Below, one piece after another: positions 19,531 to 60,074 of a stretch of DNA of 64,000 nt. The stretch lies in contig CAVUCU010000001.1 in the NCBI GenBank assembly GCA_963740085.1, forward strand, positions 1,280,001-1,344,000. The letters run 5' to 3'. The number at the start of each line of letters is the position of its first letter. Position 1 is the first letter of the stretch. Source of the stretch: Nitrospirota bacterium. Its GTDB lineage: Bacteria > Nitrospirota > UBA9217. Under the pieces are notes generated by a model that was not told the origin of the DNA, did no database searches, and was given only the letters and a program-made list of their open reading frames with translations. Made by a program: the position numbers and the translations under genes.

Positions 19531-19980
19531 ATGATCTCGAAGATTCTTGTTCCGACAGATGGTTCAAAGACAGCTCAAAAGGCAGCCAGATATGCGATTG
19601 ACCTTGCAAAACAATTAAAGGCCTCGGTAATTGTCCTGAGCGTTATTGATACACGCTTCCTTATAGGTCAGACAATTACCGCGGATACCCCAAGGCATAT
19701 GATTCAGCCTGTCGAGGAATATCTACACGAGGCCGCCAAAGAGTATGCGGGAAACATAAAGACGCTCTGTGAAAAAAGCGACCTCAAAGCAAAGACTGTT
19801 ATAACGACAGGGCACCCGGTAGAGGATATCGTGAAAGAGGCCAAAAAGTCAAAGGCAAATCTCATTGTCATGGGTTCCCACGGAAGAAGCGCCTTAGCAG
19901 CCGCGGTCCTTGGAAGTGTTACCTATGGGGTAATTCATAAGGAAATGAAGGTTCCTGTGCTCATCGTGCGGAAAGGCTGA
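19531..19980 (+). CDS. Universal stress protein (UspA family) 1
   Basis: KILVPTDGS; MGSHG-x9-GS ATP-binding motif; PVLIVR; AAGGAG RBS before 19531. Confidence 0.93.
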   Translation: MISKILVPTDGSKTAQKAARYAIDLAKQLKASVIVLSVIDTRFLIGQTITADTPRHMIQPVEEYLHEAAKEYAGNIKTLCEKSDLKAKTVITTGHPVEDIVKEAKKSKANLIVMGSHGRSALAAAVLGSVTYGVIHKEMKVPVLIVRKG

Positions 19981-20102
19981 CAGTGAGGTATCGACCAAGT
20001 TTAACAGGATTTTGAAAATATATTTATTCGCCGTTGTTTGTCTCAATAGCATTTGGCTTTGACGTGGATCAGGAAATATCATTAGGGAAAGGGATCGAAT
20101 CC

Positions 20103-21209
20103 ATGAAAGCGATCGCAGTGGCCCCCGGTACCGCAGCCCTTCGTTTGGTTGACCGGCCTCAGCCGTCCGTCTCGGCGCCCGATGATATCAAACTGAAAAT
20201 ACTTCGCGTGGGCATTTGCGGCACGGACCGGGAGCAGGCAGCAGGAGGCCGTGCGCGCGCTCCCGTGGGACAAGAGGACCTCATCATTGGCCATGAGATG
20301 TTCGGCAAGGTCGCCGAGGTCGGGAAAAGTGTTTCTCGTGTCAAGACCGGCGATTATGCGGTCTTCACGGTGCGTCGGGGCTGTGGAAAATGCCTGCCCT
20401 GCGCCATGAACCGCTCGGACATGTGCAGGACGGGCGAGTATGTTGAGCGGGGCATCTGGGGAGCTGACGGCTATCAGACGGAATACGTCGTGGACAAGGA
20501 GCAATATGTCGTCCGCATTCCCCCGGAACTGGAACAGGTCGGTGTCCTGACCGAACCGCTATCCGTGGCCGAAAAGGCGATCGACGAATCCGTTCGTCTG
20601 CAGTTCGCCCGGTTGCCTGATGCGCTTGCCACACCGGATTGGTTGCAGGGACGGCATTGCCTCGTGGCCGGATTGGGCCCGATCGGGCTTTTGGCTGCGC
20701 TGGCTTTGCAACTGCGCGGTGCGGAGGTGTTCGGCCTGGACATCGTGGACGCCGCCTCTGCCCGCGCGCAGTGGCTAAAAGGTATTGGCGGACATTATGT
20801 GGACGCCAGACAGGTGCCCGCGAAGTCGGTGAACGAGGTGTTGGGACCGATGGAACTGATCGTTGAAGCCACGGGGATCGCCGTGCTGGAGTTCAATCTT
20901 CTGGACGCCCTTGCCCTGAACGGGGTTTATGTGTTGACCGGCATTCCGGGAGGCCACCGGCCGATCGAGATCGCGGGTTCCGAGATCATCAGCAGACTGG
21001 TGCTCGGCAATCGGGTAATGATCGGGAGTGTCAATGCCGGCCGTGACCACTACCAGATGGCCGTTGACGACCTTATGACTGCCCGCCTGCAATGGGGTGG
21101 TCATCTGGACCGTCTGATCACGAACCGCTATTCCCACACCGAGTTCGCTGCGGCCTTTGAACACCATGATGAGAGCGAAATCAAGACAGTGCTGGAATGG
21201 GAAACGTAA
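20103..21209 (+). CDS. Zn-dependent (MDR family) glucose 1-dehydrogenase
   Basis: GICGTDRE, IGHE, TVRRGCGKCLPC...DMC, ERGI, EPLSVAEKA, GLGPIG, GSVNA. Confidence 0.85.
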   Translation: MKAIAVAPGTAALRLVDRPQPSVSAPDDIKLKILRVGICGTDREQAAGGRARAPVGQEDLIIGHEMFGKVAEVGKSVSRVKTGDYAVFTVRRGCGKCLPCAMNRSDMCRTGEYVERGIWGADGYQTEYVVDKEQYVVRIPPELEQVGVLTEPLSVAEKAIDESVRLQFARLPDALATPDWLQGRHCLVAGLGPIGLLAALALQLRGAEVFGLDIVDAASARAQWLKGIGGHYVDARQVPAKSVNEVLGPMELIVEATGIAVLEFNLLDALALNGVYVLTGIPGGHRPIEIAGSEIISRLVLGNRVMIGSVNAGRDHYQMAVDDLMTARLQWGGHLDRLITNRYSHTEFAAAFEHHDESEIKTVLEWET

Positions 21210-21273
21210 CCGTGATGGTCATGCTCAGCCTCAGTGTTAGTTCCCGTTTCATATTTCCCGGAGAACATAAAAG

Positions 21274-22662
21274 ATGCCGCGCGCACCCGCCGCTGATCAC
21301 AAAGCAGGAACGAACAGGTTCGTCTATATCGCCGCCGCGATCTCGGCACTCGGCGGCATGCTCTTCGGCTACGACACCGGCGTGATATCGGGCGCCATCC
21401 TCTTCATCCAGCAGGACTTCGCGCTCTCACCGACGCTTGAAGAGGTCATAGTCAGCACCGTCGTGTTCGGGGCAATGCTCGGCGCTGCTGCGGGCGGCAC
21501 CTTGACGGACCGCTTCGGACGGCGCATCGTACTCATCGTGACCGCAGCACTCTTTGCCCTGGGCGCCGTGGGTACTGCCCTGGCTCCCACGATCGCCTGG
21601 CTGATCGTTGGTCGGGTTATCGTCGGCATCGCCATCGGTGTGGCTTCCTTCACGACGCCGCTCTACATTTCCGAGATCTCTCCCGTCTCGCTGCGCGGTC
21701 GGTTCGTCTCGTTCAACCAGATTGCGCTGACAAGCGGCATCGTTATCGCATACCTCGTGGATTATGCGTTGTCCGGCACGCGGGGATGGCGCTGGATGTT
21801 CGGTCTGGCCGCGGTCCCGTCAGCCCTGCTGGGAATAGGAATGGTGTTCATGCCTGAAAGTCCGCGCTGGCTCGTGAGCCACGGACTGCTGGACAAGGGA
21901 CGTTCCGTGCTTCAGCGCATCCGCGGAACAGCCTCTGTTGATGATGAAGTTAAAGACATCCGCCAAAGCTCCGCAGAGCAGAGCGGCAGCTGGGCCGAGC
22001 TGACAAGCCACTCGCTCAGACCGGCGATGATTGTCGGCATCGGCCTGGCCCTGTTCCAGCAGGTGACGGGCATCAACACGGTCATCTATTACGCGCCGAC
22101 CATCTTTCAATCCGCAGGGTTCACGTCCACATCAGTCGCTATTCTTGCCACAACAGGCGTCGGCGTCGTCAATGTGTTGATGACCGTGGTTGCGCTGCTG
22201 CTTTTGGACCGCGTCGGACGGCGGCCGCTTTTGCTGACCGGCATGGCCGGCATGGTCATCAGCCTGGCAATGCTCGGCACTGCCTTCCTGTTTCCTCACC
22301 TGCGGGTCCTCAAGTGGTTTTCCGCGGGAAGCCTGATGCTCTACGTGGGTTCTTTCGCCGTGGGTCTCGGACCGGTTTTCTGGCTGCTGATCTCGGAAAT
22401 ATATCCAGTAAAGATCCGCGGCCTGGCCATGAGCATCGCCACGGTTGCCAACTGGGGGGCTAACCTGCTCGTTGCGCTGACCTTTCTCACTCTTATTCAG
22501 TTTTTGGGGCGGCCGGGAACGTTCTGGTTATACGCCCTGGTGGGCATCGGGGCCTGGATATTCGCCTTTGTCCTGGTGCCGGAAACGAAAGGACGGACCC
22601 TGGAAGAGATCGAGGCGCATTGGCGTGGTGGCAAACATCCCAGGGAAATGGGGAAGAGATAA
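21274..22662 (+). CDS. MFS sugar porter (GalP/XylE-like)
   Basis: LFGYDTGVISGA, DRFGRR, PESPRWL, QQVTGIN, PETKGRTLEEI. Confidence 0.95.
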   Translation: MPRAPAADHKAGTNRFVYIAAAISALGGMLFGYDTGVISGAILFIQQDFALSPTLEEVIVSTVVFGAMLGAAAGGTLTDRFGRRIVLIVTAALFALGAVGTALAPTIAWLIVGRVIVGIAIGVASFTTPLYISEISPVSLRGRFVSFNQIALTSGIVIAYLVDYALSGTRGWRWMFGLAAVPSALLGIGMVFMPESPRWLVSHGLLDKGRSVLQRIRGTASVDDEVKDIRQSSAEQSGSWAELTSHSLRPAMIVGIGLALFQQVTGINTVIYYAPTIFQSAGFTSTSVAILATTGVGVVNVLMTVVALLLLDRVGRRPLLLTGMAGMVISLAMLGTAFLFPHLRVLKWFSAGSLMLYVGSFAVGLGPVFWLLISEIYPVKIRGLAMSIATVANWGANLLVALTFLTLIQFLGRPGTFWLYALVGIGAWIFAFVLVPETKGRTLEEIEAHWRGGKHPREMGKR

Positions 22663-22826: not shown

Positions 22827-24233
22827 ATGGCAGCTCTCAATTCGGATGCGTTTGTTTTTTTCGGCGCGACCGGTGATCTGGCACATAAGCAGATATTCCC
22901 TGCGCTTCATGCGATGATCCGGCAAGGACATCTTGACGTTCCTATTATCGGTGTGGCAAAGTCGGGATGGGACTTCGAAAGATTCAAGGAACACGCCAGG
23001 GACGGCATCGAGAAGCACGGCGGGGTGAATGCAGAGGCCTTTAAAAAACTCTGCTCCCTGTTGCACTATATTGACGGCGACTATCATGACGACGCGACCT
23101 ATGAGTTGTTGCACAAGGCTCTCAGAGATGCCGGACGGCCACTGCACTACCTGGCGATCCCGCCGAGCATGTTCACCGCCGTGGTCGAAGGACTCGCCAA
23201 ATCGGGCTGCGCTCAAAATGCCCGCGTCGTTGTCGAGAAGCCGTTCGGGCGCGACCTCGCTTCGGCACAGGCGCTCAATCAAACCCTTCAGCGGATCTTC
23301 CCCGAATCGGCGATCTTTCGGATAGACCACTTCCTCGGCAAGGAACCGATACAGAACCTGCTCTATTTCCGTTTTGCCAACTCGTTTCTGGAACCGATCT
23401 GGAATCGAAACTATGTGGAGAGCGTGCAGATAACCATGAGCGAAAGTTTCGGTGTGGAAGGCCGCGGTCGTCTTTATGAGGAACTGGGCGCCATTCGTGA
23501 TGTGGTGCAGAACCACATGCTGCAGATCATGGTCCTGCTCTCCATGGACGCGCCGAACAGCAGCGATCCGGAAGCAACACGCGACGAAAAGATGCAGGTC
23601 CTCAGGGCGATACGGCAACTCACCCCTGAGGACGTCGTTCGGGGCCGATACCGCGGCTACCGGGACGAGAAGGACGTGGCGCCCGATTCCCCGGTTGAGA
23701 CGTACGCAGCGGTACGGCTTCATATCGATAGCTGGCGCTGGGCGGACGTACCATTTTATATCCGGGTTGGGAAGCGGCTGCCGTTCACGGCCAACGAGGT
23801 GCTGGTCCGACTTAAACGTCCGCCGCATGCGGTCTTTGATGAGATCAGGGAGGGCCAGTCGAACTTCTTACGTTTCCGCCTCAGTCCCGACGTTTTTATC
23901 CTGCTTGGGGCGCGGACCAAGGTTCCGGGAGAATCCATGGTCGGCGAAAAGGTAGAGTTGTTGGCGTGTCAACACTTCGTCAAGGAAATGTCGCCCTATG
24001 AGCGTCTGCTCGGCGATGCCATGCGGGGCGACGAATCCCTTTTCGCCCGCAAAGATGCTGTCGAAGCCGCCTGGCGCGTTGTCGATCCGATCCTTGAAAA
24101 CGTGACGCCGGTCCATGAGTACGAACCGAACACCTGGGGACCGGCTGAAGCGGAACAGCTCGTTGCGAACAACGGTGGTTGGCACGATCCGACACAGGCG
24201 AATGCGGTCGGCTTCTGTCGTGGTCTCCGATGA
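22827..24233 (+). CDS. zwf: Glucose-6-phosphate 1-dehydrogenase (copy 1)
   Basis: [27 protein letters not shown]. Confidence 0.95.
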
Positions 24234-24313: not shown

Positions 24314-24997
24314 ATGACATTGCAAAACGAAGTTGTGTTCCTGTTCGACGTTGACAATACGCTGCTTGACAATGATCGAGTGGTAAGCGACCTCCGACGC
24401 CATATTGACGACGAGTTCGGGGCTGAGACCAGTGCCCGCTATTTTTCCATCTTGGAAGAGCTGAATTCAGAACTCGGCTACGCCGATTACCTGGGTGCTT
24501 TGCAGCGCTACCGCCTCGAAGACGTATGCGATCCGCGGCTGCTGACGATGTCTTCGTTTCTCGTCGACTATCCGTTTGCCGACCGGTTGTATCCGGGCTC
24601 GCTCGATGCCCTTGAGCACGTTCGCGCCTGGGGGCCAACGGTCATCCTGTCCGATGGCGACGTTGTCTTCCAGCCGCGCAAAATTCAACGATCGGGACTG
24701 TGGGGAGCGGTCAACGGCCGTGTTCTCATCTACGTCCACAAAGAACGCATGCTGGCCGACATAGAGAAGCGCTATCCGGCGCGACATTATGTCATGGTAG
24801 ATGACAAGCTGCGAATTCTCGCAGCCATGAAGAGGAGCTGGGGCGGCCGGTTGACGACGGTCTTTCCCCGCCAGGGCCACTACGCGCTCGACCAGAGAAA
24901 TCTCGACACCTATCCGGCGGCGCAAATGAACATTGAACGGATCGGCGATCTCATCCAGTACGATCGGGCCGCGTTTCTGGGCAGCGGGAGATCGTGA
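24314..24997 (+). CDS. HAD-superfamily hydrolase
   Basis: LFDVDNTL motif I, LSDGD, MVDDK. Confidence 0.85.
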   Translation: MTLQNEVVFLFDVDNTLLDNDRVVSDLRRHIDDEFGAETSARYFSILEELNSELGYADYLGALQRYRLEDVCDPRLLTMSSFLVDYPFADRLYPGSLDALEHVRAWGPTVILSDGDVVFQPRKIQRSGLWGAVNGRVLIYVHKERMLADIEKRYPARHYVMVDDKLRILAAMKRSWGGRLTTVFPRQGHYALDQRNLDTYPAAQMNIERIGDLIQYDRAAFLGSGRS

Positions 24998-25024: not shown

Positions 25025-26047
25025 ATGAAGAACGAGAACGAACTGCAGTCGACCATCGATCAGATGGTCCAGCGAGGCAAGGGCATCCTTGCCGCTGACG
25101 AGAGCCATCCGACCATCGCCAAACGGTTCAAGGCAATCGGCGTAGAATCGACCGAGGCCAACCGGCGGTCCTATCGCACGCTCCTGTTCACGACGCCAGG
25201 CGCCGCGGAATTTATCAGCGGAGTCATTCTCTTCGAAGAGACCTTGGGCCAGGCCGCGGATGACAAGACGCTGCTGCCCGAGGTGCTGTCCCGCCAGGGC
25301 ATCGTGCCTGGCATCAAGGTGGACAAGGGGAAGGTCCCCCTGGCCAACGCGCCCGGAGATGAGGTCACCCAGGGCCTGGACGGTCTTGCTGAACGCCTCA
25401 GAACATACAAATCACAGGGCGCGCGCTTTGCAAAGTGGCGCGAGGTGTATTCCATCGGCCCGCAGAATCCCACCCGCCTCGGCATCAAGGCGAACGCCGA
25501 AATGCTGGCGCGTTACGCGGCCGTCTGCCAGGAGGAGGGTGTCGTTCCCATTGTCGAGCCGGAGGTGCTGATCGACGGCGACCACACCCTGGAGCGATGC
25601 TTCGAGGTCACCGAGGCGGTGCTGCACGCGGTGTTCCATGCACTGCACCGGCACCGGGTGGTCCTGGAATATACGGTCCTCAAACCGAGCATGGTATTGC
25701 CCGGCAAGGGGCATCCTCCCAAGGCAGGACCCGAGCAGGTGGCCGCGGCGACGGTCAAGGTGCTCCGCCGCACGGTCCCCGCCGCGGTGCCGAGCATCAA
25801 TTTCCTGTCCGGCGGCCAGGGGCCGGCGGAAGCAACAGCCAACCTGAACGCCATGAACGCCCTGTTCCCGGCTTCTCCCTGGGAGCTTTCGTTCTCCTAC
25901 GGGCGGGCCCTGCAGGAGACCGCGCTGCAAGCGTGGGCCGGAAAAGTGGAGAACGCGGCTGCCGCTCAGCAGGCCTTTTATCAGCGCGCCAGGCTGAACG
26001 GCCTGGCACGGCTCGGCAAATACTCCCCGGATATGGAGCAGACATGA
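25025..26047 (+). CDS. Class I fructose-bisphosphate aldolase
   Basis: KGILAADES, PGIKVDKG, FAKWR, PIVEPEV, LKPSMV Schiff-base lysine, FSYGRALQ. Confidence 0.93.
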   Translation: MKNENELQSTIDQMVQRGKGILAADESHPTIAKRFKAIGVESTEANRRSYRTLLFTTPGAAEFISGVILFEETLGQAADDKTLLPEVLSRQGIVPGIKVDKGKVPLANAPGDEVTQGLDGLAERLRTYKSQGARFAKWREVYSIGPQNPTRLGIKANAEMLARYAAVCQEEGVVPIVEPEVLIDGDHTLERCFEVTEAVLHAVFHALHRHRVVLEYTVLKPSMVLPGKGHPPKAGPEQVAAATVKVLRRTVPAAVPSINFLSGGQGPAEATANLNAMNALFPASPWELSFSYGRALQETALQAWAGKVENAAAAQQAFYQRARLNGLARLGKYSPDMEQT

Positions 26048-26176: not shown

Positions 26177-27872
26177 ATGGAAGTAAGCCCTTATGCAGGA
26201 AAACTTGCCGAACCAGTGATGCTGGTCAACGTGCCCAAGCTTGTCACGGCCTACTATACGAATGTGCCCGATCCTGAGGTCGCTGAACAACGGGTTGCGT
26301 TCGGCACCTCAGGACACCGCGGTTCTTCGCTCGAAAAGGCCTTCAACGAGTGGCATATCCTTGCCATTACGCAGGCCATTTGTCTGCACCGCAAGATGCA
26401 GAAGATAGAGGGTCCCCTCTTTCTCGGAATAGACACCCACGCGCTCTCGGTCCCTGCCTTTGCCAGTGCACTGGAGGTCCTGGCGGCCAACAAGATGGAT
26501 GTCATGATCGCGGAAAGGGATGAATATACACCGACCCCCGTGGTCTCTCACGCGATTCTCACTTACAACCGCGGCCGCAGGACGGGACTTGCCGACGGCA
26601 TCGTGATCACCCCCTCGCACAACCCGCCTGACAGCGGCGGCTTCAAATACAACCCTCCGAACGGCGGGCCGGCTGACCCTCAGGTGACGAGCTGGATCGA
26701 GGCGAAGGCGAATGAGTTGATCAAAGACGGCCTCAGAGAGGTGAAAAGGATTCCCTTCGAGAAAGCGCTTCGCGCAGACACGACGCACCGGCATGACTAC
26801 CTCGATGCGTATGTAAACGATCTGGGCAACGTGATCGACATGGAGGCCATTCGCGGCTCGAAGATCAGCCTTGGCGTGGACCCGCTCGGCGGGGCCGGAG
26901 TACACTACTGGGGGCCCATTATCGAGCGGTACGGCTTGAATCTCACGGTCGTGAATGACGCCGTTGATCCGACATTTCGTTTCATGACACTTGATTGGGA
27001 CGGCAAGATCCGAATGGACCCCTCTTCACCCTATGCGATGCAGAAACTGATCGGTCTGAAGGACCGTTTCGATATCGCCTTCGCCTGCGACACCGATGCT
27101 GACCGGCACGGGATCGTCACCGAGAAGCACAGGCCTGCTTCCGCCCAATCACTATCTTTCTGTCGCCATCTTTTACCTGTTCCAGCACCGGCCGAAATGG
27201 CCCAGGGAGGCGGCAGTGGGAAAGACCGTGGTGAGCAGCCGGATGATCGATCTCGTTGCTGCGAAGCTTGGCCGGAAACTCTACGAAGTGCCTGTCGGTT
27301 TCAAGTGGTTTGTCGACGGCCTGCTCAACGGATCTCTCGGGTTTGTCGGCGAGGAGAGCGCGGGCGCATCTTTTCTCCGTCTCGACGGCACGGTATGGAC
27401 GACGGACAAAGATGGAATCGTCCCTGCCCTGCTTTCTGCCGAGATCACGGCACGGATGGGCCGTGACCCCGGCGAGATCTACCGTGAGCTTACGCGCGAT
27501 TTCGGCGAGCCGGTCTACGACCGGGTCGAGGCGCCTGCAACCCCGGAGCAGAAAGAGGCGCTGAAAAGACTTTCTCCAAACCGGATTAAATCCACCGATC
27601 TTGCCGGGGAGAAGATCCAGACCATCCTTGCCCAGGCACCGGGCAATAACGAGCCCATTGGTGGTCTAAAGGTCATTGCACAGAACGGATGGTTCGCGGC
27701 TCGGCCGTCAGGGACCGAAGATATCTACAAGATCTACGCGGAGAGCTTCCGTGGAAAGGAGCACCTGCGCCGCATCCTGGTGGAAGCGCAGACGATCGTC
27801 AACGAGGCACTGACATCGGCGCCACAGCGGTCTGGATTTGCAAACAAATTAAATTCGGAGGGAAAATCATGA
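26177..27872 (+). CDS. pgm: Phosphoglucomutase (alpha-D-glucose-1,6-bisphosphate dependent); frameshift near 27122
   Basis: [21 protein letters not shown], then VGFKWF, GEESAG, RPSGTE in the next frame. Confidence 0.92.
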
Positions 27873-28384
27873 GCGAGCAAAAAGGAACAGATACAAATTT
27901 AGAATCCTTGATGGAGAAGCTGGCAAGCAATGACGGCGTGATCCGGCAGAAAGCACGGGAAGCGTTGGTGGATCTGGGCAAACCCGCCGTATCTTCCCTC
28001 ATCCAGGCTTTACAGAATCCCAAGCTGGATCAAGTTCGATGGGAAGCGGCCAAAGCGCTCGGTAGTATCAACGATACCAGATCAATACCACCATTGGTGA
28101 AAGCGCTCGAAGACAACAACTCCGACGTGGCATGGACGGCTGCAGACGCATTGAAAGCGTTCAGAAAAGCCGCTTGGCCGCCATTATTACAGGCGTTGAT
28201 CAAAAGCAAGTCGGAATCCGTGTCGTTGCGCAAGGGGGCGCACCATGTTTTGGTGGACCAGAAAGAGGATGGATTCAACGAATTGCTCGCGACGCTCCTC
28301 AAGGCCCTGGAGTCCAGCAGTGCTCCGGAATCGTCAGCAGTAGCGGCCCATGACATCCTTAAAAAAATGAACGTTAAAGTATGA
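27869..28384 (+). CDS. HEAT/PBS-lyase repeat protein
   Basis: GGAGG RBS, ATGA overlap with the pgm stop; repeats [27 protein letters not shown]. Confidence 0.8.
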
Positions 28385-50658: not shown

Positions 50659-51343
50659 TCCCGATGAGATGATCTTCTGGCAACACGGGTTTCTCAAACT
50701 CAACGCCACCATTGTGTTCACATGGGGACTGATGCTCGTGCTGGCCGTCGGTTCAAAACTCATCACGCGCAAACTTTCCACGGGTCTGAAACGTTCCCGC
50801 TGGCAGAACCTTCTGGAAATCGTCGTCACCGGCATCGAGAAACAAATTGAAGAGGTGGGCCTGAGTCAGCCGCAGAAATATCTCGGCTTTCTGGGCACGC
50901 TCTTCCTGTTTGTCGCCGCAGCCAGCCTCTGCACCGTCATTCCCGGCTACGAGCCGCCGACCGGCTCGCTCTCGACCACGGCTGCACTCGCGCTGTGCGT
51001 GTTTGTGGCCGTGCCGTTCTTCGGCATCGAGGAGCAAGGGGTGGGCAACTACCTCAAGTCCTATATGAAGCCGACGTTCATCATGCTGCCGTTTAACATC
51101 ATCAGCGAACTTTCGCGCACGCTGGCCCTGGCCGTCCGTCTGTTCGGCAACATGATGAGCGGGGCGATGATTATCGCCATCCTGCTCACGATTACGCCCT
51201 TCATCTTCCCGATCGTCATGACGGTGCTCGGCCTGCTCACCGGCATGGTGCAGGCCTACATCTTCAGCATCCTGGCCGCGGTTTACATCGCGGCTGCCAC
51301 GCGAGTCCGTAAGCCCAAGCCTGAACCCGAGGCAAAACATTGA
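50648..51343 (+). CDS. atpB: Fo subunit a
   Basis: SRTLALAVRLFGN with the essential Arg; VQAYIF. Confidence 0.95.
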   Translation: MHLSPDEMIFWQHGFLKLNATIVFTWGLMLVLAVGSKLITRKLSTGLKRSRWQNLLEIVVTGIEKQIEEVGLSQPQKYLGFLGTLFLFVAAASLCTVIPGYEPPTGSLSTTAALALCVFVAVPFFGIEEQGVGNYLKSYMKPTFIMLPFNIISELSRTLALAVRLFGNMMSGAMIIAILLTITPFIFPIVMTVLGLLTGMVQAYIFSILAAVYIAAATRVRKPKPEPEAKH

Positions 51344-51374
51344 AGCATGAACTACGACAACAAAAGGAGATACT

Positions 51375-51656
51375 ATGGATAGCATGACTATTATCGCGGT
51401 GGCATCAATTGTCATCGCCGGCATCACCACCGGTTTCGGCACTATGGGGCCTGCGCTGGCGGAAGGGAGGGCGGTCGCGACGGCGCTGAGTTCGCTGGCC
51501 CAGCAGCCCGATGCCTCCGCTACCATCACCCGGACCTTGTTCGTGGGCCTGGCGATGATCGAGTCCACGGCCATCTACTGCTTCGTGGTCTCGATGATTC
51601 TCATCTTCGCCAACCCGTTCTGGAACCACGTCATCGCCCAGGCCGCAGGAAAGTAA
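51375..51656 (+). CDS. atpE: Fo subunit c with Na+-type ligand set
   Basis: GPALAEG (E30), QQP loop, MIESTAIY (E63, S64, T65, Y68). Confidence 0.95.
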   Translation: MDSMTIIAVASIVIAGITTGFGTMGPALAEGRAVATALSSLAQQPDASATITRTLFVGLAMIESTAIYCFVVSMILIFANPFWNHVIAQAAGK

Positions 51657-51660
51657 ACCT

Positions 51661-52593
51661 ATGCTAATCGATTGGTTCACGGTCGGAGCACAGGCGCTCA
51701 ACTTTCTCATCCTGGTGTGGTTGATGAAGCGCTTCCTTTACAAGCCCATCCTCCACGCCATCGATGAGCGGGAGAAGCGGATCGCCACAGAACTCGCGAA
51801 CGCCGACAAGAAAAAGGCCGAAGCCCAAAAGGAGCGCGACGAGTTCCAGCACAAGAACGAGGAGTTCGACCAGCAGCGCGCCGCGCTTTTGAGCAAAGCG
51901 ACGGACGAGGCGAAGGCCGAACGTCAGCGGCTCCTCGACGAAGCGCGGAAGGCCGCCGACGCTTTGAGTGCCAAGCGGCAGGAAACGCTGAGAAACGAAG
52001 AACATAACCTGAATCAAGCCATCAGCCGCCGGACACAGCAGGAAGTATTTGCCATCGCACGAAAGGCGCTGACGGATCTCGCCACGACGAGTCTGGAAGA
52101 ACGCCTGGGCGAGGTGTTCACGCGCCGCTTGCGAGAGATGGACGGCCAGGCGAAAGCAGGCCTCGCCGAGGCCCTTAAGACAGCGTCTGACCCCGCGCTC
52201 GTGCGCAGCGCGTTTGACCTGCCTGCGGAGCAACGCGCGGCGATACAAAATGCGCTCAACGAAACCTTCTCGGCTGAAATCCACGTCCGGTTCGAGACCG
52301 CGCCAGACCTGATCAGCGGCATTGAACTCACCACGAATGGACAAAAGGTGGCGTGGAGCATCGCGGATTATCTGGCGTCGCTGGAAAAGGGCGTCGACGA
52401 ACTTCTGAAAGAGAAGGACAAACCTAAAGCCAAGACCAAGACATCGACCGATTTGAAGCCGCAGATCGCCGAGCGCGCCTATGAACTGTACAAGAAGCGA
52501 GGCCGCACGAGCGATTCGACAATTCAGGACTGGAGTCAGGCGGAACAGGAGATCCGGAAAGACGAAGCCAAAGGAGATGCTGAACCTGAATGA
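51661..52593 (+). CDS. atpF: Fo subunit b (b-delta-like fusion) with C-terminal DUF2934-like domain
   Basis: IDWFTVGAQALNFLIL...LYKPI, coiled coil, PDLISGIEL...WSIADYL, then IAERAYELYKKRG...DWSQAEQEI. Confidence 0.9.
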   Translation: MLIDWFTVGAQALNFLILVWLMKRFLYKPILHAIDEREKRIATELANADKKKAEAQKERDEFQHKNEEFDQQRAALLSKATDEAKAERQRLLDEARKAADALSAKRQETLRNEEHNLNQAISRRTQQEVFAIARKALTDLATTSLEERLGEVFTRRLREMDGQAKAGLAEALKTASDPALVRSAFDLPAEQRAAIQNALNETFSAEIHVRFETAPDLISGIELTTNGQKVAWSIADYLASLEKGVDELLKEKDKPKAKTKTSTDLKPQIAERAYELYKKRGRTSDSTIQDWSQAEQEIRKDEAKGDAEPE

Positions 52594-52629
52594 TCGAAGA
52601 CGGACCAAGCCGGAACCAAAACCTTTTGA

Positions 52630-52728
52630 ACCGCGAAGGCGCAAAGGTCGCGAAGGAAAGATTGTAGATCTTGTAGTAAGACAAATTACTTTTTTTGATG
52701 TCCTTCGCGTTCTTCGCGTCTTCGCGGT
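52630..52728. repeat. Intergenic 28-bp imperfect inverted repeat of CGCGAAG units inside the ATPase operon
   Basis: ACCGCGAAGGCGCAAAGGTCGCGAAGGA ... TCCTTCGCGTTCTTCGCGTCTTCGCGGT (24/28 Watson-Crick, 2 further G-U pairs); AT-rich 43-nt loop. Confidence 0.85.
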
Positions 52729-52783
52729 AAATCATTCTTGCCCTTTTGAGTAGAAGCTCATTCATAACGGAAACAAAGAGCCA

Positions 52784-54539
52784 ATGAACATGGAACCTGA
52801 GAGCCTCCAGAACGTTTTCGACAGCGCATTTGCCGGAATAAGCCAGGTGCGGGAAGCATTCACACCGCAACTGACGCCACGGGAGGTGGGCACGATCACC
52901 AGTGTCGCCACCGGCATCGCCAAAGTGTCGGGTCTTCCCGGCGTGGGCTTTGATGAATTGGTGACGTTTCCCGGCGATGTGCTCGGCATTGCGTTCAACG
53001 TGGACGCGGACGAAATTGGCGTCGTTCTGCTCGGCGAATACTGGCATCTCCACGCGGGCGATGAAGTCCAGCGCACGGGCCGGGTCATGGACGTGGCCGT
53101 GGGCGATGGATTGCTGGGGCGCGTCATCGACCCGCTCGGCCGGCCACTCGATGGCAACGGGCCGGTGGCCTCCAGCAAGCGCCTGCCCATCGAACGCCCC
53201 GCCCCGCCCATCATGGACCGCGCGCCCGTCACGGTGCCTCTCCAGACCGGCCTCAAAGTCATCGATGCGCTCATTCCCGTTGGGCGCGGCCAGCGCGAGT
53301 TGATTCTCGGCGACCGCCAGACGGGCAAGACCGCCATTGCGATCGACACCATCCTCAACCAGCGCGGCCAGAATGTCCTGTGCGTTTATTGTGCCATCGG
53401 TCAGCGCGCGTCCGCCGTCGCGAAGGCCGTGGCAACCTTGCGGGAAAAGGGCGCGATGGATTACACCGTCGTCGTCGTGACCGAGGGCAACGACCCGCCG
53501 GGTCTCGCTTACATCGCTCCTTACGCCGCGACCAGCATCGCGGAGTCTTTCATGGAAGCGGGCCGCGATGTGCTGATCGTTTACGACGACCTCACCCATC
53601 ACGCGCGCGCCTACCGCGAACTCTCTCTCTTGCTGCGCCGTCCGCCCGGTCGCGAAGCGTTTCCCGGCGACATCTTTTATATCCACTCGCGGCTGCTCGA
53701 ACGTGCGACGCACTTGCGCAAGGAACTCGGCGGCGGCTCCCTCACCGCGCTGCCCATCATCGAAACCGAAGCGCAGGACATTTCCGCCTATATTCCGACC
53801 AACTTGATTTCCATCACGGATGGGCAGATCTACCTCTCGCCGTCGCTGTTCGAATTGGGCGTGCTGCCCGCGGTCGATGTCGGAAAATCCGTTTCGCGCG
53901 TCGGCGGCAAGGCGCAGCGCGCGGCCTACCGCGCGGTGGCGGGCGACCTCAAGCTCGCCTACGCGCAGTTTGAGGAACTCGAAACCTTTTCCCGGTTCGG
54001 GGCCCGCCTGGATGAAGACACCCGCAAGATCATCGAGCACGGACGGCGAATTCGCGCCTGCCTCAAACAGCCGGAATTCGCCCCGGTGTCCGTGCCCGCG
54101 CAAATCGCCGTGCTGCTGGCGTTGACCGCAGAACTCTTCGACCGCGTGCCGCTTGACCAGATGACGGACGCCGAGCACGCCCTGCGCGAGGCGGCGGCGG
54201 ATATCCCGGCGGAGGTGCGCGAGCGATTGGATACCGCCGACAAATTGAGCGACGAGGATCGTGAAACGATTATCCAAATCGCCCGCAAAGCGCTCGCTCG
54301 CTTCCAACCAAAACTTGAGCAGAAACAAGAGACCAAAGAGGACACAAAATCCGAAGCTAAATCCAAGCTGAAGTCCAAAACCGAAGCTAAACCAGATAAG
54401 CCTGACTCCGAAACCGAAGAAGAGACACAACCGAAACCCAGCCGAGCCAAAGTCGAAGCCCGAGGCAAGGCTGGATGAGCCCAAGCCGGAAGTCCAGGAA
54501 GAGGTCAAGCCCAAGCCTGAACCCGGGGAGAAGTCATGA
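52784..54539 (+). CDS. atpA: N-type ATPase alpha subunit (tail frameshifted; track stop 54478)
   Basis: [29 protein letters not shown]; the K/P/E-rich tail continues to an ATGA overlap with atpG. Confidence 0.95.
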
Positions 54540-55429
54540 GCGATACCACGGCGAGTCTGCGCCGAAAGATCGCCGGAGCCGGGGATCTCCAATCCGTCGT
54601 CCGCACGATGAAGGCCGTGGCCGCTTCGAGCATCGGGCAATACGAGAACTCGGTGCTCGCGTTGGCCGACTACTATCGCACTGTGGAGTTGGGGTTGGGC
54701 GCGTGCTTCCGGGAAAGCGGGTCGGCGCCCTTGATTGCAGAACGGAAAGGACAAACAGTTGCGGGTGCGATCGGCGCGGTCGTGTTCGGTTCAGACCAGG
54801 GACTGGTGGGCCAATTTAATGATGTGGTGGCCGATTATGCGGTCAAGACGCTGGCGGCTCTGCCGGCCAAACCCGAGGTCTGGGCCGTCGGTGAGCGCGT
54901 TCATGCGCGCCTGGCGGATGCGGGGCTGCCGCTGATGGGACTCTTCACCGTGCCGAACTCCGTCAAGGCCATCACCCCGCTCGTCGGGCAGATTCTTGTG
55001 GAGAGCGAGACGCGACACAGCCAGGGAGAGGTCACCGAACTCCACCTCTTCTACAACCGCCCCACGTCCGGGGCGGTCTATGCGCCCGTCAGTCAGCGAC
55101 TGCTGCCGCTGGACGAAAACTGGCGACGCAAGCTGGCCGAGCTTCCCTGGCCGACAAAAAACTTGCCCGAGGTCATGGGTGGCGGCACCGCGACCTTGCG
55201 GGCGCTTATCCGCGAATATCTTTTCGTCTCGCTCTTCCGGGCGTGCGCCGAATCCCTCGCGAGCGAGAACGCGAGCCGCCTGGCGGCGATGCAACGCGCC
55301 GACAAAAATATCGACGAATTGCTGGAGGACCTCAACGGGAAATTCCATCGTTTGCGCCAGAGTGGCATCGACGAGGAACTGTTCGATGTCATCTCCGGCT
55401 TCGAAGCGCTGAGCGCGGAGGAAAAATAA
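54536..55429 (+). CDS. atpG: N-type ATPase gamma subunit
   Basis: VVRTMKAVAA, GSDQGLVGQFN, SENASRLAAMQRA, RQSGIDEEL. Confidence 0.95.
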   Translation: MSDTTASLRRKIAGAGDLQSVVRTMKAVAASSIGQYENSVLALADYYRTVELGLGACFRESGSAPLIAERKGQTVAGAIGAVVFGSDQGLVGQFNDVVADYAVKTLAALPAKPEVWAVGERVHARLADAGLPLMGLFTVPNSVKAITPLVGQILVESETRHSQGEVTELHLFYNRPTSGAVYAPVSQRLLPLDENWRRKLAELPWPTKNLPEVMGGGTATLRALIREYLFVSLFRACAESLASENASRLAAMQRADKNIDELLEDLNGKFHRLRQSGIDEELFDVISGFEALSAEEK

Positions 55430-55882
55430 ATGACTGATTTTAATGATTTTCAAAAGCCATTGGCTGAAGGAGCGGCGGCTCAGTTTAATTTTCTCGACCC
55501 CTTGGAAAAAGACGTGGAAATGAACAAGATTGAAGAAGAGGCAGCACGAGCTGATCACTTGAAGACTGATCCGGCCATCCAGGCCTACCAGGCCATACAG
55601 AAATATGTCGAGAAATTTGAGGCGCAACTGGACAACGAGCATGAGGTAGGGGTGGCACTTGCCTTTTTCGGCGGCAATGTATTTTTCCATGCCGAAAAAA
55701 TGGAATCTTCTGCGTCCAGCATAATTACGTTCTACGGAACTACCGAAGAGGGAGAAAAAATTCAGTTGATTCAACATGTGTCTCAACTGAATCTTCTGCT
55801 GAAACGAGCGAAGAAAATGGATGACAAAGCGCGACGTATTGTGTTCATAAGGGAAGAAACAGCACAGAGTCGAGAAGGGTGA
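55430..55882 (+). CDS. Hypothetical protein (DUF6173-like)
   Basis: FEAQLDNEHEVG...IITFYG...G...LIQHVSQLNLLL; family recalled from memory; more AT-rich than atpG. Confidence 0.6.
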   Translation: MTDFNDFQKPLAEGAAAQFNFLDPLEKDVEMNKIEEEAARADHLKTDPAIQAYQAIQKYVEKFEAQLDNEHEVGVALAFFGGNVFFHAEKMESSASSIITFYGTTEEGEKIQLIQHVSQLNLLLKRAKKMDDKARRIVFIREETAQSREG

Positions 55883-56118: not shown

Positions 56119-57546
56119 ATGACTAATAAACAAACGCAAAGACTGGATGAAATCGGCATGGTCGGCTTGGGCGTCATGGGACGCAATCTCGTGCTGAACA
56201 TGGCCGACCAAGGCTTTTCGGTGGCGGGTTACGATAAGGACCAGACCAAGGTTGCGGCGCTGCGGAATGAAGCCAAGCAGCGCGATGTTCGCGGCGCAGC
56301 AGACGTCAAAGAGTTCATCGCCTTGCTCCGTCGCCCGCGCGCAATCATGATGCTGGTGCCTGCCGGCGCTCCGGTGGATTCGGTCATCAAGGACCTGTTG
56401 CCGCACCTCGACGAAGACGATCTCATCATCGATGCCGGGAACTCCTACTTCAAAGATACCGATGTGCGCGGACGCAACCTGGCAGCGAAAGGCATCCAAT
56501 TCCTCGGCGTGGGCGTGTCGGGTGGTGAAGAAGGCGCGCGTCACGGACCAAGCATCATGCCCGGCGGGCCGAAAGTGGCCTACGAACGGGTCCGTCCCGT
56601 CTTTGAAGCTGCTGCCGCCAAGGTCAGCGGCGAGCCATGCGTGACCTGGCTGGGGCCCGGATCGGCAGGTCATTTCGTGAAGATGGTCCACAATGGCATC
56701 GAATACGGTATCATGCAATTGGTCGCCGAGACATACGACCTGATGAAACGCGACCTTGGCTTGAACGACGACGAATTGCATGGCGCGTTCAGCGCATGGA
56801 ATAAGGCTGAACTGAACGGCTACCTGATGGAGATCACCAGCCATATTTTCTCCAAAAAGGACGAGAAGACCGGCATGCGGCTGATCGACGAAATTCTCGA
56901 CGTGGCCAGACAGAAAGGCACCGGCATGTGGACCTCGCAGAGCGCAATGGAACTGCAAGTGCCGATCCCGACGATCGACCTGGCGGTTGCGATGCGGGAC
57001 ATGTCCCTGTTCGTAAAGGAACGGGAGCAGGCCGGCGCGATGTATCATCGGCCCCTGCCGCGCTTCACCGGCGACCGCGACGTCTCCCTCAAGCGATTGC
57101 GCCGCGCGCTTTATACCGCGATGATCGGCATCTACGCACAAGGCATGGCTCTCCTGGTGGTTGCTTCGGACAAATACGCGTATCACCTCGATCTCGAAGC
57201 CGTGGCGCGGATCTGGCGCGGAGGCTGCATCATTCGCGCCGCGTTGTTGGAAGACATCGGCGAGGCATTTCACGCGAGACGCGATCTGCCCAATTTGCTG
57301 CTCGATCCGAACCTGTCGCACAAGGTTATGGATCATCAGGAAGATTTGCGCAAGGCGGTATGCCGGGCGGCCGAGGCGGGAATTCCGGCCCCGGGGCTGA
57401 TGGTTTCGTTGGGTTATCTCGACGCCTATCGCAGCGCATGGCTGCCGGCGAATCTCATCCAGGCCCAGCGCGACTATTTCGGTGCTCATACCTATGAGCG
57501 GACCGATGCCAAGGGCACGTTTCACACGGAATGGGAGAAAAAATGA
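56119..57546 (+). CDS. gnd: NADP-dependent 6-phosphogluconate dehydrogenase (decarboxylating)
   Basis: GLGVMG, SGGEEGA, VKMVHNGIEYG, QKGTG, QRDYFGAHTY. Confidence 0.97.
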   Translation: MTNKQTQRLDEIGMVGLGVMGRNLVLNMADQGFSVAGYDKDQTKVAALRNEAKQRDVRGAADVKEFIALLRRPRAIMMLVPAGAPVDSVIKDLLPHLDEDDLIIDAGNSYFKDTDVRGRNLAAKGIQFLGVGVSGGEEGARHGPSIMPGGPKVAYERVRPVFEAAAAKVSGEPCVTWLGPGSAGHFVKMVHNGIEYGIMQLVAETYDLMKRDLGLNDDELHGAFSAWNKAELNGYLMEITSHIFSKKDEKTGMRLIDEILDVARQKGTGMWTSQSAMELQVPIPTIDLAVAMRDMSLFVKEREQAGAMYHRPLPRFTGDRDVSLKRLRRALYTAMIGIYAQGMALLVVASDKYAYHLDLEAVARIWRGGCIIRAALLEDIGEAFHARRDLPNLLLDPNLSHKVMDHQEDLRKAVCRAAEAGIPAPGLMVSLGYLDAYRSAWLPANLIQAQRDYFGAHTYERTDAKGTFHTEWEKK

Positions 57547-57653
57547 AGATCATGAAAACGAATGACAAACTCGAACCGGCGGTGTTCGCCATTTTTGCCG
57601 GAGCCGGCGACTGGACTTGGCGGAGAATCGAACAAGAAATGATCATCATGTAG
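57543..57653 (+). pseudogene. zwf: 5' remnant of zwf
   Basis: MKIMKTNDKLEPAVFAIFAGAGDWTWRRI versus MTTRKPDDQLEPTVFVIFGGAGDLTWRKL (zwf copy 2). Confidence 0.8.
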
Positions 57654-57668
57654 CATTGGAGGAGAGTT

Positions 57669-60074
57669 ATGACCGATTCGATACATGCTCCCGGCTGGCC
57701 GGGCAGCCAGGCCCGCTGGACATCGAGCGCCAAGAGCGGCGTGGGCACGTCGCTCTCCCCTGCAAGCCGCGTCTGGTTCACCCTGAGCCACGGCATCCTG
57801 AACGAGATATACTATCCTCGTGTGGATCAGGCGTGCACACGCGACCTTGGCCTCATCATCACCGATGGCCGGGAATTTTTCTCCGAGGAAAAACGCCATG
57901 CCTCATCGCTCCTTACCTACATAGCCGAGGGAGTTCCCGCATATCATCTGGAAAACACTTGCATGGAAGGCCGCTACCGGATCGAGAAAGATATCATCGC
58001 TGATCCCCGAAGGGACGTTGTGCTCCAGCGGGCCCGGTTCGTTGCTCTTCAGGGGAAAATACCGGACTACCATCTCTATGCCCTTCTGGCGCCTCATCTC
58101 GGGAATCACGGCGCCGGAAACACTGCGTGGGTCGGCGACTACAAGGGCGTGCCCATGCTTTTTGCGGAGCGAGACGGTAATGCCCTGGCACTGGCTTGTT
58201 CAGCTGACTGGCTCAGGCGTTCCGTCGGTTTTGTCGGCGCTTCCGATACGTGGCTGGACCTGATGCACAATAGGATCATAACCCGGGAATACGCACGCGC
58301 CGAAAACGGCAACGTGGCGCTCTGCGGCGAAATTGATCTCGCATCATCGAACGGCGCGTTCCTTCTTGCACTGGGGTTCGGCAGCAATTTTTCCGAGGCC
58401 GGAAATCGCGCACTGGCAGGTCTCTACGATGGATTCGAGTCGGCGCAGGCCTTGTACATTCGCGAGTGGCAGGTGTGGCAGCGGACGCTGCCCGTCATGG
58501 ACAGCGCGAAGAGCGACGCCCATAACCTGTTCCGGGTGAGTACCGCGGTCCTCAGGACCCACGAGTCAAAACGCTTTCCCGGCGGCCTGATCGCCAGCCT
58601 TGCCATTCCCTGGGGTTTTTCCAAGGGCGATAACGATCTCGGCGGATATCATCTTGCGTGGCCTCGGGACCTGGTTGAGTCTGCGGGCGGACTTCTGGCC
58701 GCGGGTGCGCGCGAGGATGTTCATCGGGTGCTCCACTATCTTCAGGTCACGCAGGAAGCTGATGGATACTGGCCGCAGAACATGTGGCTCGACGGCACGC
58801 CGTACTGGGGCGGCATCCAGATGGACGAGACCGCTTTTCCCATTCTTCTGGTTGATATGGCGCGGAGGGAAAAGGCGCTGGAAAAGCGTGATCTCGTCGG
58901 GCTCTGGCCCATGGTGCGAAGGGCGGCAAGCTTTATCGTGCGGAATGGTCCGGTAACGCAGCAGGACCGCTGGGAGGAAGATGCGGGCTATTCGCCTTTC
59001 ACGCTTGCAGTGGAGATCGCGGCGCTTCTGGTCGCCGCGGACCTCGCAGAGCTGAACAGCGAGCCCAAGGCCGCCGTGTATCTCCGCGAAACCGCCGACG
59101 CCTGGAACGCGAACATCGAACGCTGGGTCTACGTGACGGGAACGGAGCTGGCAAAGAGCGCGGGAGTTGACGGCTATTACGTACGCATCGCGCCGCCGGA
59201 CACCGCCGATGCAGCCTCACCGGAAGAAGGGTTCGTACCGATCAAGAACAGGCCTGTCGGCCAAAGCGCCGAGCCCGCTGTGCATATCGTAAGCCCTGAT
59301 GCCCTGGGCCTGGTCCGTTTCGGCCTTCGCGCAGCCGATGATCCGCGTATTGTCAATACGGTCAAGGTCATAGACGCGTTTTTGAAGGTGGAGACGCCCC
59401 ACGGCCCGGCCTGGCACCGGTACAATGACGACGGCTATGGAGAGCACGCGGACGGCTCGCCGTTCGATGGCACGGGCATCGGGAGGGCCTGGCCTTTGCT
59501 TACCGGCGAGCGCGCCCATTACGAACTCGCGGCCGGCCGCAGCGATAAAGCGGAGAACCTGCTCCGTGCCCTCGAAGCCTTCGCAAACGAAGGAGGAATG
59601 ATATCCGAGCAGGTCTGGGACGCCCCGGACATCCCGGAGAAAGAACTCTTTTTCGGCAGGCCCTCGGGTTCGGCCATGCCGCTGGTCTGGGCCCATTCCG
59701 AGTACGTGAAGCTGAGGCGGTCTTTGCATGATGGACGCGTGTTCGATACGCCGCCGCAGACCATCGAGCGTTATCAGGGGAAAAAGACCGGGTCCCCCTA
59801 CTCCATCTGGCGGTTCAACCACAAGTGTCGGTCCATGATGGCGGGCAGGACGCTTCGTCTGGAGGTACTGTCGCCTGCGATGGTGCGATGGAGTGCGGAC
59901 GGATGGCGCACGGTTCAAGAAACGTCCACGCAGGATACCGGACTCGGTGTCCATTGCGCCGACCTTTTGACAAAGCATGTCCCCGTCGGAGGAACGATGG
60001 AATTCACCTTCTATTGGACTCAAGCCCGACGATGGGAAAACACGAACTTTTTGGTTGCCGTAACGCAGGAATGA
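57669..60074 (+). CDS. GH15 glucan 1,4-alpha-glucosidase (glucoamylase/glucodextranase type)
   Basis: APGWPG...WT...KSGVG N-domain, GGYHLAWPRD, QMDET, QDRWEE, GERAHYE, SEQVWD, SAMPLVWAH. Confidence 0.9.
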   Translation: MTDSIHAPGWPGSQARWTSSAKSGVGTSLSPASRVWFTLSHGILNEIYYPRVDQACTRDLGLIITDGREFFSEEKRHASSLLTYIAEGVPAYHLENTCMEGRYRIEKDIIADPRRDVVLQRARFVALQGKIPDYHLYALLAPHLGNHGAGNTAWVGDYKGVPMLFAERDGNALALACSADWLRRSVGFVGASDTWLDLMHNRIITREYARAENGNVALCGEIDLASSNGAFLLALGFGSNFSEAGNRALAGLYDGFESAQALYIREWQVWQRTLPVMDSAKSDAHNLFRVSTAVLRTHESKRFPGGLIASLAIPWGFSKGDNDLGGYHLAWPRDLVESAGGLLAAGAREDVHRVLHYLQVTQEADGYWPQNMWLDGTPYWGGIQMDETAFPILLVDMARREKALEKRDLVGLWPMVRRAASFIVRNGPVTQQDRWEEDAGYSPFTLAVEIAALLVAADLAELNSEPKAAVYLRETADAWNANIERWVYVTGTELAKSAGVDGYYVRIAPPDTADAASPEEGFVPIKNRPVGQSAEPAVHIVSPDALGLVRFGLRAADDPRIVNTVKVIDAFLKVETPHGPAWHRYNDDGYGEHADGSPFDGTGIGRAWPLLTGERAHYELAAGRSDKAENLLRALEAFANEGGMISEQVWDAPDIPEKELFFGRPSGSAMPLVWAHSEYVKLRRSLHDGRVFDTPPQTIERYQGKKTGSPYSIWRFNHKCRSMMAGRTLRLEVLSPAMVRWSADGWRTVQETSTQDTGLGVHCADLLTKHVPVGGTMEFTFYWTQARRWENTNFLVAVTQE

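Follow-up and report, generated by a model that had tools for sequence, protein, structure and literature searches.

Gene content and layout of the block

A 64,000-nucleotide stretch of contig CAVUCU010000001.1 (the window) carries, between positions 19531 and 60074, a block of 34 genes plus remnants of transaldolase (tal) and transketolase (tkt) genes. It combines alpha-glucan breakdown, a phosphoketolase (Xfp), an acetate kinase (AckA) and an N-ATPase operon, and family scans placed all of these genes on the + strand. A sequence-only reading of the window had proposed a unit here that burns stored glucan to ATP and NADPH and spends ATP to keep the membrane energised when respiration stops. 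Every gene that it named was found where it had placed it. However, its gene list was incomplete: the tal and tkt remnants were omitted, and rpe, tpi, pta, glucokinase and gluconokinase gave no tblastn match in the window. The features of the block are as follows (related loci are defined in the section on recurrence).

19531..19980, +, universal stress protein (USP) 1 (PF00582, E 1.8e-32; host-like GC of 0.45)
20103..21209, +, Zn-dependent glucose dehydrogenase-like protein (PF16912 Glu_dehyd_C and ADH_N)
21274..22662, +, sugar porter, major facilitator superfamily (MFS) transporter (TIGR00879, above cutoff)
22827..24233, +, zwf1, glucose-6-phosphate dehydrogenase (TIGR00871, 490 bits, above cutoff)
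24314..24997, +, HAD phosphatase 1 (homologues within xfp/tal/tkt/pgm clusters of two examined plasmids)
25025..26047, +, class I fructose-bisphosphate aldolase, fba (NF033379, above cutoff)
26177..27872, +, phosphoglucomutase, pgm (one-base insertion near 27122)
27869..28384, +, HEAT-repeat protein (PF13646)
28624..31170, +, alpha-glucan phosphorylase, GlgP (TIGR02094, 795 bits; frame change in the tail near 31040)
31281..32836, +, zwf2 (split near 31610)
32857..34695, +, GH13 enzyme with CBM48 (under the cutoff for GlgB and for TreZ alike)
34707..35156, +, USP 2 (PF00582)
35239..35906, +, HAD phosphatase 2 (one-base insertions at two sites; in related loci, homologues stand before ackA-xfp)
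35899..37192, +, APC-family permease (insertion near 36976)
37301..38828, +, membrane-anchored NapC/NrfH-like multiheme cytochrome (7 heme motifs; split near 37680)
38836..40047, +, acetate kinase, ackA (TIGR00016, above cutoff)
40066..42427, +, phosphoketolase Xfp (full ATP-inhibition motif; one-base insertion at 40836)
42435..43439, +, DUF389/TIGR00341 membrane protein (neighbour of xfp or of atpD in 5 of the 80 related loci)
43507..43968, +, ribose-5-phosphate isomerase B, rpiB (TIGR00689, above cutoff)
43965..44869, +, two transaldolase 5' stubs, 90% identical, flanking a low-GC CxxC ORF (44228-44557); deletion remnants
44895..46108, +, transketolase remnant spanning residues ~162-551 of 698, with a frameshift as well
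46215..46415, +, small 66-aa membrane ORF, intact (no family match)
46459..48108, +, glucose-6-phosphate isomerase, pgi (overlaps atpD)
48098..55429, +, N-ATPase operon atpD C Q R B E F A G (TIGR03305, 03166, 03165, 03306, 03322, 03321, 03324 and 03323 above cutoff; TIGR02230)
55430..55882, +, DUF6173 protein (GC 0.45)
56119..57546, +, NADP-dependent 6-phosphogluconate dehydrogenase, gnd (TIGR00873, above cutoff)
57669..60074, +, GH15 glucan 1,4-alpha-glucosidase (TIGR01535, 793 bits, above cutoff)

The genes are closely packed. Spacing is at most 20 nt at 15 of the 36 junctions and more than 100 nt at 10; the widest gap, 239 nt, is too small to hold a minus-strand gene. As had been noticed, pgi overlaps atpD, by 11 nt. 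Co-orientation was considered as proof of a unit and rejected, since the + strand run continues beyond the block on both sides, from htpG (13562) to the window end. The block boundaries are therefore set by function and GC, not by orientation. Scans for sigma-70 promoters and terminators (18500-38000 and 42000-61500) did not yield an operon map that could be used.

The block had also been called an island. With 0.589, its GC content is above that of the flanks (0.527 and 0.505), and foreign composition and phylogeny agree with that description. However, the GC content at third codon positions overlaps that of host genes, family scans found no integrase or transposase among the window proteins, a repeat search found no att-like flanking repeats around the block (the sole notable repeat is the duplicated tal stub), and in place of a border tRNA the Rfam and tRNA scans found only two tRNAs in the window, 14 kb from the block. 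The named relatives of the window HtpG are from Nitrospirota, up to 94-95% identical, and thus the host is probably, if tentatively, a member of this phylum. Since the AtpD of the block shares 97% identity with one from an Acidobacteriota genome while the host HtpG is nearest to Nitrospirota, the block looks acquired.

Recurrence beside related N-ATPase operons

As related loci we took the best 80 of 457 confirmed AtpC relatives in GTDB, which are 79-96% identical to the query AtpC. They span 14 named phyla, and phylum switches at least 16 times on a FastTree tree of AtpD and AtpA (53 rows). The commonest neighbour is xfp. Any match was found in 33 of the 80 loci and a near-full gene in 25, all co-oriented with the operon (4 contig-cut and 4 short matches are excluded from the latter count). 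In 9 of these 25 copies, xfp ends less than 400 nt from atpD. Upstream neighbours were counted in the 49 loci whose upstream sequence reaches 7 kb or more (flanks of 10 kb, 13 kb seen; near-duplicates L007 and L056 dropped). Twenty of the 49 have a near-full xfp on the same strand, from six named phyla and one unassigned genome (Acidobacteriota 8, Pseudomonadota 7, one each from Omnitrophota, Planctomycetota, Binatota and Verrucomicrobiota, unassigned 1). The rough chance level is 0.4-0.7% per locus for a 4.5 Mb genome with 1-2 copies, although the loci are not independent. Eight of the 49 loci have both xfp and glgP, and five also have ackA. Thus the linkage is not unique to this genome; it is widespread within one N-ATPase subclade.

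The linked Xfps form one close group, 74-93% identical to the window Xfp. Congruence of the gene trees, which had been put forward as a check, held in part: AtpD and Xfp distances are correlated with a rho of 0.43 (n=25, p=0.002), against 0.76 for AtpD and AtpA. Presence of xfp changes at least nine times on the AtpD and AtpA tree. The distance correlations point to co-transfer of xfp and the operon with reshuffling and partial co-divergence.

Other neighbours in the 80 loci are glgP (15), P-type ATPases (15), PPK2 (12), DUF2254 (12), GH130 (12), GH94 (7), pyruvate kinase (6) and Na/H exchangers (5). An HPF-like ribosome-hibernation gene lies inside the operon in seven loci (L001, L003, L009, L040, L048, L064 and L072), and a baeRF-type hibernation-factor homologue inside the operon in L001 and L040 and upstream of it in L003; both score under their family cutoffs. 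The multiheme cytochrome of the block was not found in the 80 loci. The pgi-atpD junction of the window also occurs in L001, and in L032 as a short 3' pgi stub at the atpD start (L032:8331-8489). In one Desulfobacterales genome, two N-ATPase operons that are nearly identical lie on the same contig, separated by about 44 kb (L012 and L013).

N-ATPases and phosphoketolases on plasmids

An N-type AtpB is encoded in 50 plasmid records, of which 15 were examined; an acetate or carbamate kinase is in view at 5 of these N-ATPase regions. On a plasmid of Polymorphobacter sp. PAMC 29334 a whole xfp cassette (tkt, zwf, rpe, ackA, gnd, tal, pgi, rpiA, xfp, fba, phosphatase) adjoins the operon, divergent from atpD. 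On a Hymenobacter plasmid tpi, pgm and glgP are adjacent, and HAD-ackA-xfp-fba lies about 43 kb off. Complete arginine deiminase pathways stand directly beside the operon on two unrelated plasmids (L099:4227-8873 and L103:2011-6697), Pta-AckA with an alpha/beta hydrolase on two plasmids and hydrogenases on one. The neighbours on the Acaryochloris plasmid are pfk, ppsA, USPs and Hox. Window-type Xfp is carried by 220 plasmid records. Phosphoketolase and N-ATPase genes form two separate mobile cassettes that are often found together, rather than a single fixed system.

A pair of genes for a thymidine-phosphorylase-family protein and a phosphoribosyl pyrophosphate (PRPP) synthetase stands beside the N-ATPase on four plasmids. 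This grouping, usually with a metallo-beta-lactamase (MBL) hydrolase, lies beside an N-ATPase or xfp-ackA at L081:2159-6002, L098:78-2497, L102:19589-23465, L104:5294-9287 and L092:13588-17356, and is possibly a nucleotide-to-pentose feed.

The N-ATPase

The operon has the gene order atpDCQRBEFAG, and eight subunits exceed the NCBIfam cutoffs for the 'alternate F1F0' families. AtpR matches TIGR03165 with 117 bits (cutoff 55.5) and PF12966. AtpQ matches TIGR02230 with 148 bits (cutoff 46.7), but in a shifted frame, with a one-base insertion near 50028, close to the gene start. Therefore the description of a full N-ATPase is borne out for the presence of its nine genes, and holds entirely provided that the shift in atpQ is an error. 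A separate delta gene (atpH) is absent, and residues 176-243 of AtpF match PF00213 as a delta-like C-terminal extension. The c subunit has a glutamate in helix 1 (E30) and the motif ESTAIY, which is the full sodium ligand set. By the criteria of Dibrova et al. (PMC2881411), this is an N-ATPase with a sodium-type c subunit. A c17 ring has been measured in a Burkholderia N-ATPase (PMC5376962), and for rings of 15-20 subunits we computed that the enzyme would reverse at about 70-105 mV, a range that fits pumping and synthesis equally. Tails rich in Lys, Pro and Glu, with a common 22-nt repeat, lie at 49460-49610 (AtpD), 52410-52590 (AtpF) and 54310-54530 (AtpA); that of AtpF matches DUF2934.

Frameshifts and decayed genes

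Frameshifts occur in 9 of the 34 block genes: pgm, the glgP tail, zwf2, HAD phosphatase 2 (twice), the APC permease tail, the cytochrome, xfp, the atpD tail and atpQ. When checked against close DNA relatives, the shifts in pgm, xfp, atpQ, HAD phosphatase 2 and the permease were single-base insertions. The shifts in pgm, zwf2, xfp and atpQ might be real, and the block dead and decaying as tal and tkt did. The number of shifted genes agrees with this, as do the true deletions in tal and tkt and the position of the checked insertions outside long homopolymers. However, no in-frame stops were found in the pieces tested, and the counts of window-specific amino-acid and synonymous changes in xfp (13/54) are like those in the intact atpD (3/15) and atpG (3/14); the count in atpQ is 0/3. 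The host gene htpG (13562-15467), outside the block, is also split, although 118 of 119 relatives are full length, and so is the frame of a small secreted protein gene at 17935-18243, also outside the block. Given these two genes, contig-wide indel errors are suggested. The frameshift rate does not differ significantly between the block (9/34) and its flanks (2/19; p=0.29), and the fragmented HtpG in a 2.57 Mb contig is consistent with long-read assembly. The nine frameshifts are thus likelier to be assembly errors of the long-read type, as the sequence-only reading required, and a dead copy is very unlikely.

The loss of tal and tkt is different. The former is left as two stubs of about 70 codons and the latter lacks both ends, and this is real decay by deletion. 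Since the block keeps only these remnants and has neither rpe nor tpi, it is not self-sufficient.

Phosphoketolase and carbon flow

Lu et al. described ATP inhibition of phosphoketolase and a motif of eight residues for it (PMC10365998). The window Xfp matches this motif, PWX2HX3YRX7HXRX31R, exactly and in all eight residues. The match is also strict in 17 of the 27 Xfps from GTDB loci with a scored C-terminus; in the other 10 a spacer residue or a substitution differs. The best solved-structure match of the window Xfp is the cyanobacterial enzyme 8io8. The work of Lu et al. cites a role of phosphoketolase and acetate kinase (XPK-ACK) in dark anaerobic and osmotic survival of a cyanobacterium, and a phosphoketolase appears in a Bradyrhizobium microoxia table (PMC6515984).

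Carbon flow was followed in a stoichiometric model of the block enzymes with optional additions. If erythrose 4-phosphate is discarded, the yield is 1 ATP per glucosyl unit. The oxidative route through zwf and gnd gives 1-2 ATP and requires a sink for NADPH. When Rpe, Tpi and a bisphosphatase are added, together with either Tal/Tkt or cleavage of sedoheptulose 7-phosphate (S7P) by Xfp, the yield is 3 ATP with zero redox load. Production of NADPH when respiration stops had been part of the sequence-only reading, but the model needs an electron sink for it, and 'NADPH for dormancy' was rejected as a core function.

Of the genes for non-oxidative glycolysis or a sedoheptulose bisphosphate (SBP) cycle, the block has Xfp (frameshifted), Fba, Rpi, Pgi and AckA, and it wants Rpe, Tpi and intact Tal and Tkt. 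The candidate bisphosphatases in the block are the two HAD phosphatases, which have no assigned substrate and whose structure matches are uncharacterised proteins only. A Gpm2-like phosphatase gene is absent from the block and from the window as a whole. In four related or plasmid-borne cassettes a histidine phosphatase gene directly follows xfp or xfp-fba (L082:2241-2879, L089:21690-22169, L090:21617-22222 and L094:17690-18304). The best PDB matches of the L082 protein are Gpm2 and yeast YKR043C, the latter of which we take to be the sedoheptulose bisphosphatase Shb17. Gpm2 is a fructose bisphosphatase (PMC4535450).

Proposed function and alternatives

We propose, with about an even chance of being right, that the block is one large version of a low-energy module that spreads horizontally and consists of two cassettes with only a loose tie between them, in which the N-ATPase spends ATP from fermentation. 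From the observed gene content, recurrence and motifs we infer that the genes would be co-expressed, that carbon would flow through them and that the N-ATPase would pump. The first cassette (glgP, pgm, pgi, xfp, ackA, fba, pentose-phosphate genes and phosphatases) would use alpha-glucan by phosphorolysis. As ATP falls, Xfp would be freed from ATP inhibition and form acetyl phosphate, which AckA would convert to ATP and acetate. The leftover C3 and C4 sugar phosphates could be recycled by Rpe, Tpi, bisphosphatase and Tal/Tkt of the host without an electron acceptor, and the zwf/gnd branch would be active only with an electron sink. The second cassette, the sodium-type N-ATPase, would hydrolyse a share of this ATP and so hold a modest ion gradient. 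Pairing with a pump is the simplest explanation because phosphoketolase fermentation itself would move no ions. The low-energy role that had been suggested gains support from the ATP-inhibition motif of Xfp and from the hibernation-factor-like genes in related operons; the closed unit does not stand, as the model gives no steady state and each half occurs alone.

Several observations weigh against this proposal. The block enzymes alone reach no steady state and form no closed pathway in the model, the 10 gaps of more than 100 nt make several transcripts possible, and no glycogen synthesis gene is present in the window. Near-full xfp is missing from 29 of the 49 loci within the 13 kb seen, and much of the count may reflect common descent, the 80 loci being the nearest AtpC relatives (79-96%). 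Two loci, L055 (8358-8492) and L060 (8324-8489), retain only a 3' xfp stub at the atpD start; such stubs, like that of pgi in L032, show that the upstream gene was lost and the junction kept. On plasmids xfp is adjacent in only 1 of the 15 N-ATPase regions, three examined N-ATPases have no relevant neighbours, and several of the opened Xfp plasmids carry glucan-xfp-ackA clusters without an N-ATPase in the region viewed. Published expression data on other N-ATPases are mixed. Under oxygen limitation the F-type operon of B. thailandensis rose, the N-type operon did not, and USPs fell (PMC3966863); the Acaryochloris plasmid operon was only slightly up, with low expression, and was called possibly cryptic (PMC5295598); and deletion of the M. 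acetivorans operon had no visible effect (cited in PMC2881411). The N-type operon of Pelobacter was up in 2,3-butanediol fermentation, but not in another fermentation (PMC3543383, unpublished arrays).

The same low-energy regulon could also employ the N-ATPase as a standby synthase at low potential, parallel to Xfp-AckA, so that both would add ATP. A 2026 preprint (bioRxiv 10.64898/2026.10.01.756066) argues that N-ATPases are such synthases, to which the same ring size is suited, and points to vesicles in which synthesis and hydrolysis are both coupled to sodium. The computed reversal potential and the gene context would fit this equally well. Nevertheless, we hold a synthase to be unlikely: without respiration or light the block holds no ion pump to feed it, the recurrent neighbours yield ATP rather than gradients, and Dibrova et al. 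argued for ATP-driven pumping from non-replaceability (PMC2881411). Sodium export would be the task of the N-ATPase in a salt or osmotic module, in which GlgP, GH13 and GH15 would shuttle glucan to and from compatible solutes and Xfp-AckA would pay the ATP. The full sodium ligand set suits this, as do the Na/H exchangers beside 5 of the 80 loci, the sub-cutoff TreZ match of the GH13 enzyme, the action of XPK-ACK in osmotic stress (PMC10365998) and the salt tolerance conferred by a cyanobacterial N-type operon (cited in PMC8949462). But family scans found no treY, treS or otsAB in the block, ESI replaces EST in 10 of 82 c-subunit alignments, and the hibernation-like genes and arginine deiminase modules point more to energy limitation than to salt; we hold a salt module to be quite improbable.

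Finally, the genes might have accreted without coupling at a hot-spot of stress genes (USPs, PRC-barrel, BON, hibernation factors, P-type ATPases and PPK2), with a single ancestral junction of xfp and atpD that has been passed on by transfer and is slowly breaking up. The single close group of linked Xfps, the repeated changes in xfp presence and the two xfp stubs at atpD are what such a history would leave, P-type ATPases, DUF2254 and PPK2 are about as frequent as glgP, and the window block itself is mosaic, with inserts of low GC and with tal and tkt in decay. On the other hand, xfp is the most frequent neighbour of all. Moreover, distant N-ATPase clades adjoin unrelated substrate-level ATP modules and the Polymorphobacter xfp cassette is divergent rather than tandem upstream, both of which speak for repeated association, and we consider uncoupled accretion improbable.

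Our proposal of a low-energy module can be extended to a natural, mobile and redox-neutral glucan fermentation that is switched on by a fall in ATP, with N-ATPases acting generally as pumps for substrate-level ATP modules. This is speculative, and we are inclined to doubt it. If true, a natural fermentation would turn each glucosyl unit into 3 acetate, yielding 3 ATP without the need for an electron sink, and would fuel the N-ATPases paired with it; N-ATPases would be dedicated to phosphoketolase, arginine deiminase and Pta-AckA modules in dormant cells across phyla.

Other features of the window

A Spy/CpxP-like protein is encoded just upstream of the block (18817-19347) and a third USP downstream (63418-63996), and the stress region may be wider than the block as first delimited. 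An imperfect 47-nt repeat lies at 1960-2006 and 2602-2648, upstream of an Rrf2 regulator gene and of cydAB, and is a possible shared operator of the two. At 11482-12076 (+), a DsbA/thioredoxin-like ORF has an in-frame TGA within a U-P-F-C motif and a weak match to a (seleno)protein family; it probably encodes a selenoprotein, the start of which ORF callers miss.

Comparison with known systems

The operon shares with the N-ATPase operons of Dibrova, Galperin and Mulkidjanian (2010, PMC2881411) the order atpDCQRBEFAG, AtpR, AtpQ, a long AtpF, the lack of atpH, a c subunit with two Glu residues and ESTxxY, and lateral spread. There, however, the operon is treated as inserted alone, and conserved metabolic neighbours are not named in the main text. 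Sodium export, acid defence and standby synthesis have been proposed as its role since 2010. The recurring tie to ATP-gated phosphoketolase and substrate-level ATP modules offers a testable clue to this debated job and points to specific conditions and culturable strains.

No description of the xfp-ackA-N-ATPase linkage was found among the top results of searches of the open full-text literature, although subscription journals or supplementary neighbourhood figures may show it. Duplicated xfp, ackA, fba and glgP and an alternative synthase are mentioned in separate passages of PMC3156569, and the relevant passages of PMC9925335 and PMC8527097 do not link phosphoketolase genes with the alternative synthase. 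The sequence-only reading had taken the linkage to be uncharacterised, which agrees with these search results for the xfp-ackA version, but a similar idea has already been published for the Acaryochloris marina plasmid pREB4 (PMC8949462). That plasmid has a sodium N-ATPase with glycogen phosphorylase, for which a fermentative module with a possible link to dormancy was proposed, and USPs, pfk and ppsA nearby. It differs in using pyruvate:ferredoxin oxidoreductase (PFOR) and Hox hydrogenase as redox sink, in being described for one genus only, and in having neither xfp nor ackA within 20 kb.

The lxa locus of Burkholderia cenocepacia (PMC3721108) shares USPs, acetate kinase, cytochromes, turnover of a storage polymer and persistence in anoxia. 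However, its polymer is polyhydroxyalkanoate (PHA), used with Pta-AckA; phosphoketolase is not mentioned in the text, and no ATPase is assigned to the locus in the passages that describe it. Of the lxa-type genes the window has USPs and acetate kinase, but no family match to PHA synthase and no phosphate acetyltransferase. The XPK-ACK of Synechococcus elongatus (PMC10365998) shares with the window Xfp the 8io8 match and the eight motif residues, and it has a survival role under dark anaerobic and osmotic stress; its main role there is that of a Calvin cycle brake, and a link to an N-ATPase is not described in the account of that role. Thus the block belongs with known low-energy stress loci, and its coupling to the N-ATPase is plausible but unproven.

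The synthetic non-oxidative glycolysis/SBP cycle (SCTPK, PMC10468489) uses the same list of enzymes, Xfp, Fba, bisphosphatase, Rpi, Rpe and Tpi, with or without Tal/Tkt, and the variant of our modelled pathway in which Xfp cleaves S7P is the engineered SBP cycle. That cycle is described as engineered, and in the natural cassettes the flux is predicted from gene content; the window has no rpe, tpi or Gpm2-like phosphatase gene. Related natural cassettes do carry xfp-fba-phosphatase, with a phosphatase nearest to Gpm2/YKR043C in the PDB. If the carbon recycling is true, soil and sediment bacteria of several phyla would share a transferable means of surviving when no electron acceptor is at hand, and what engineers built would also exist as a natural pathway.

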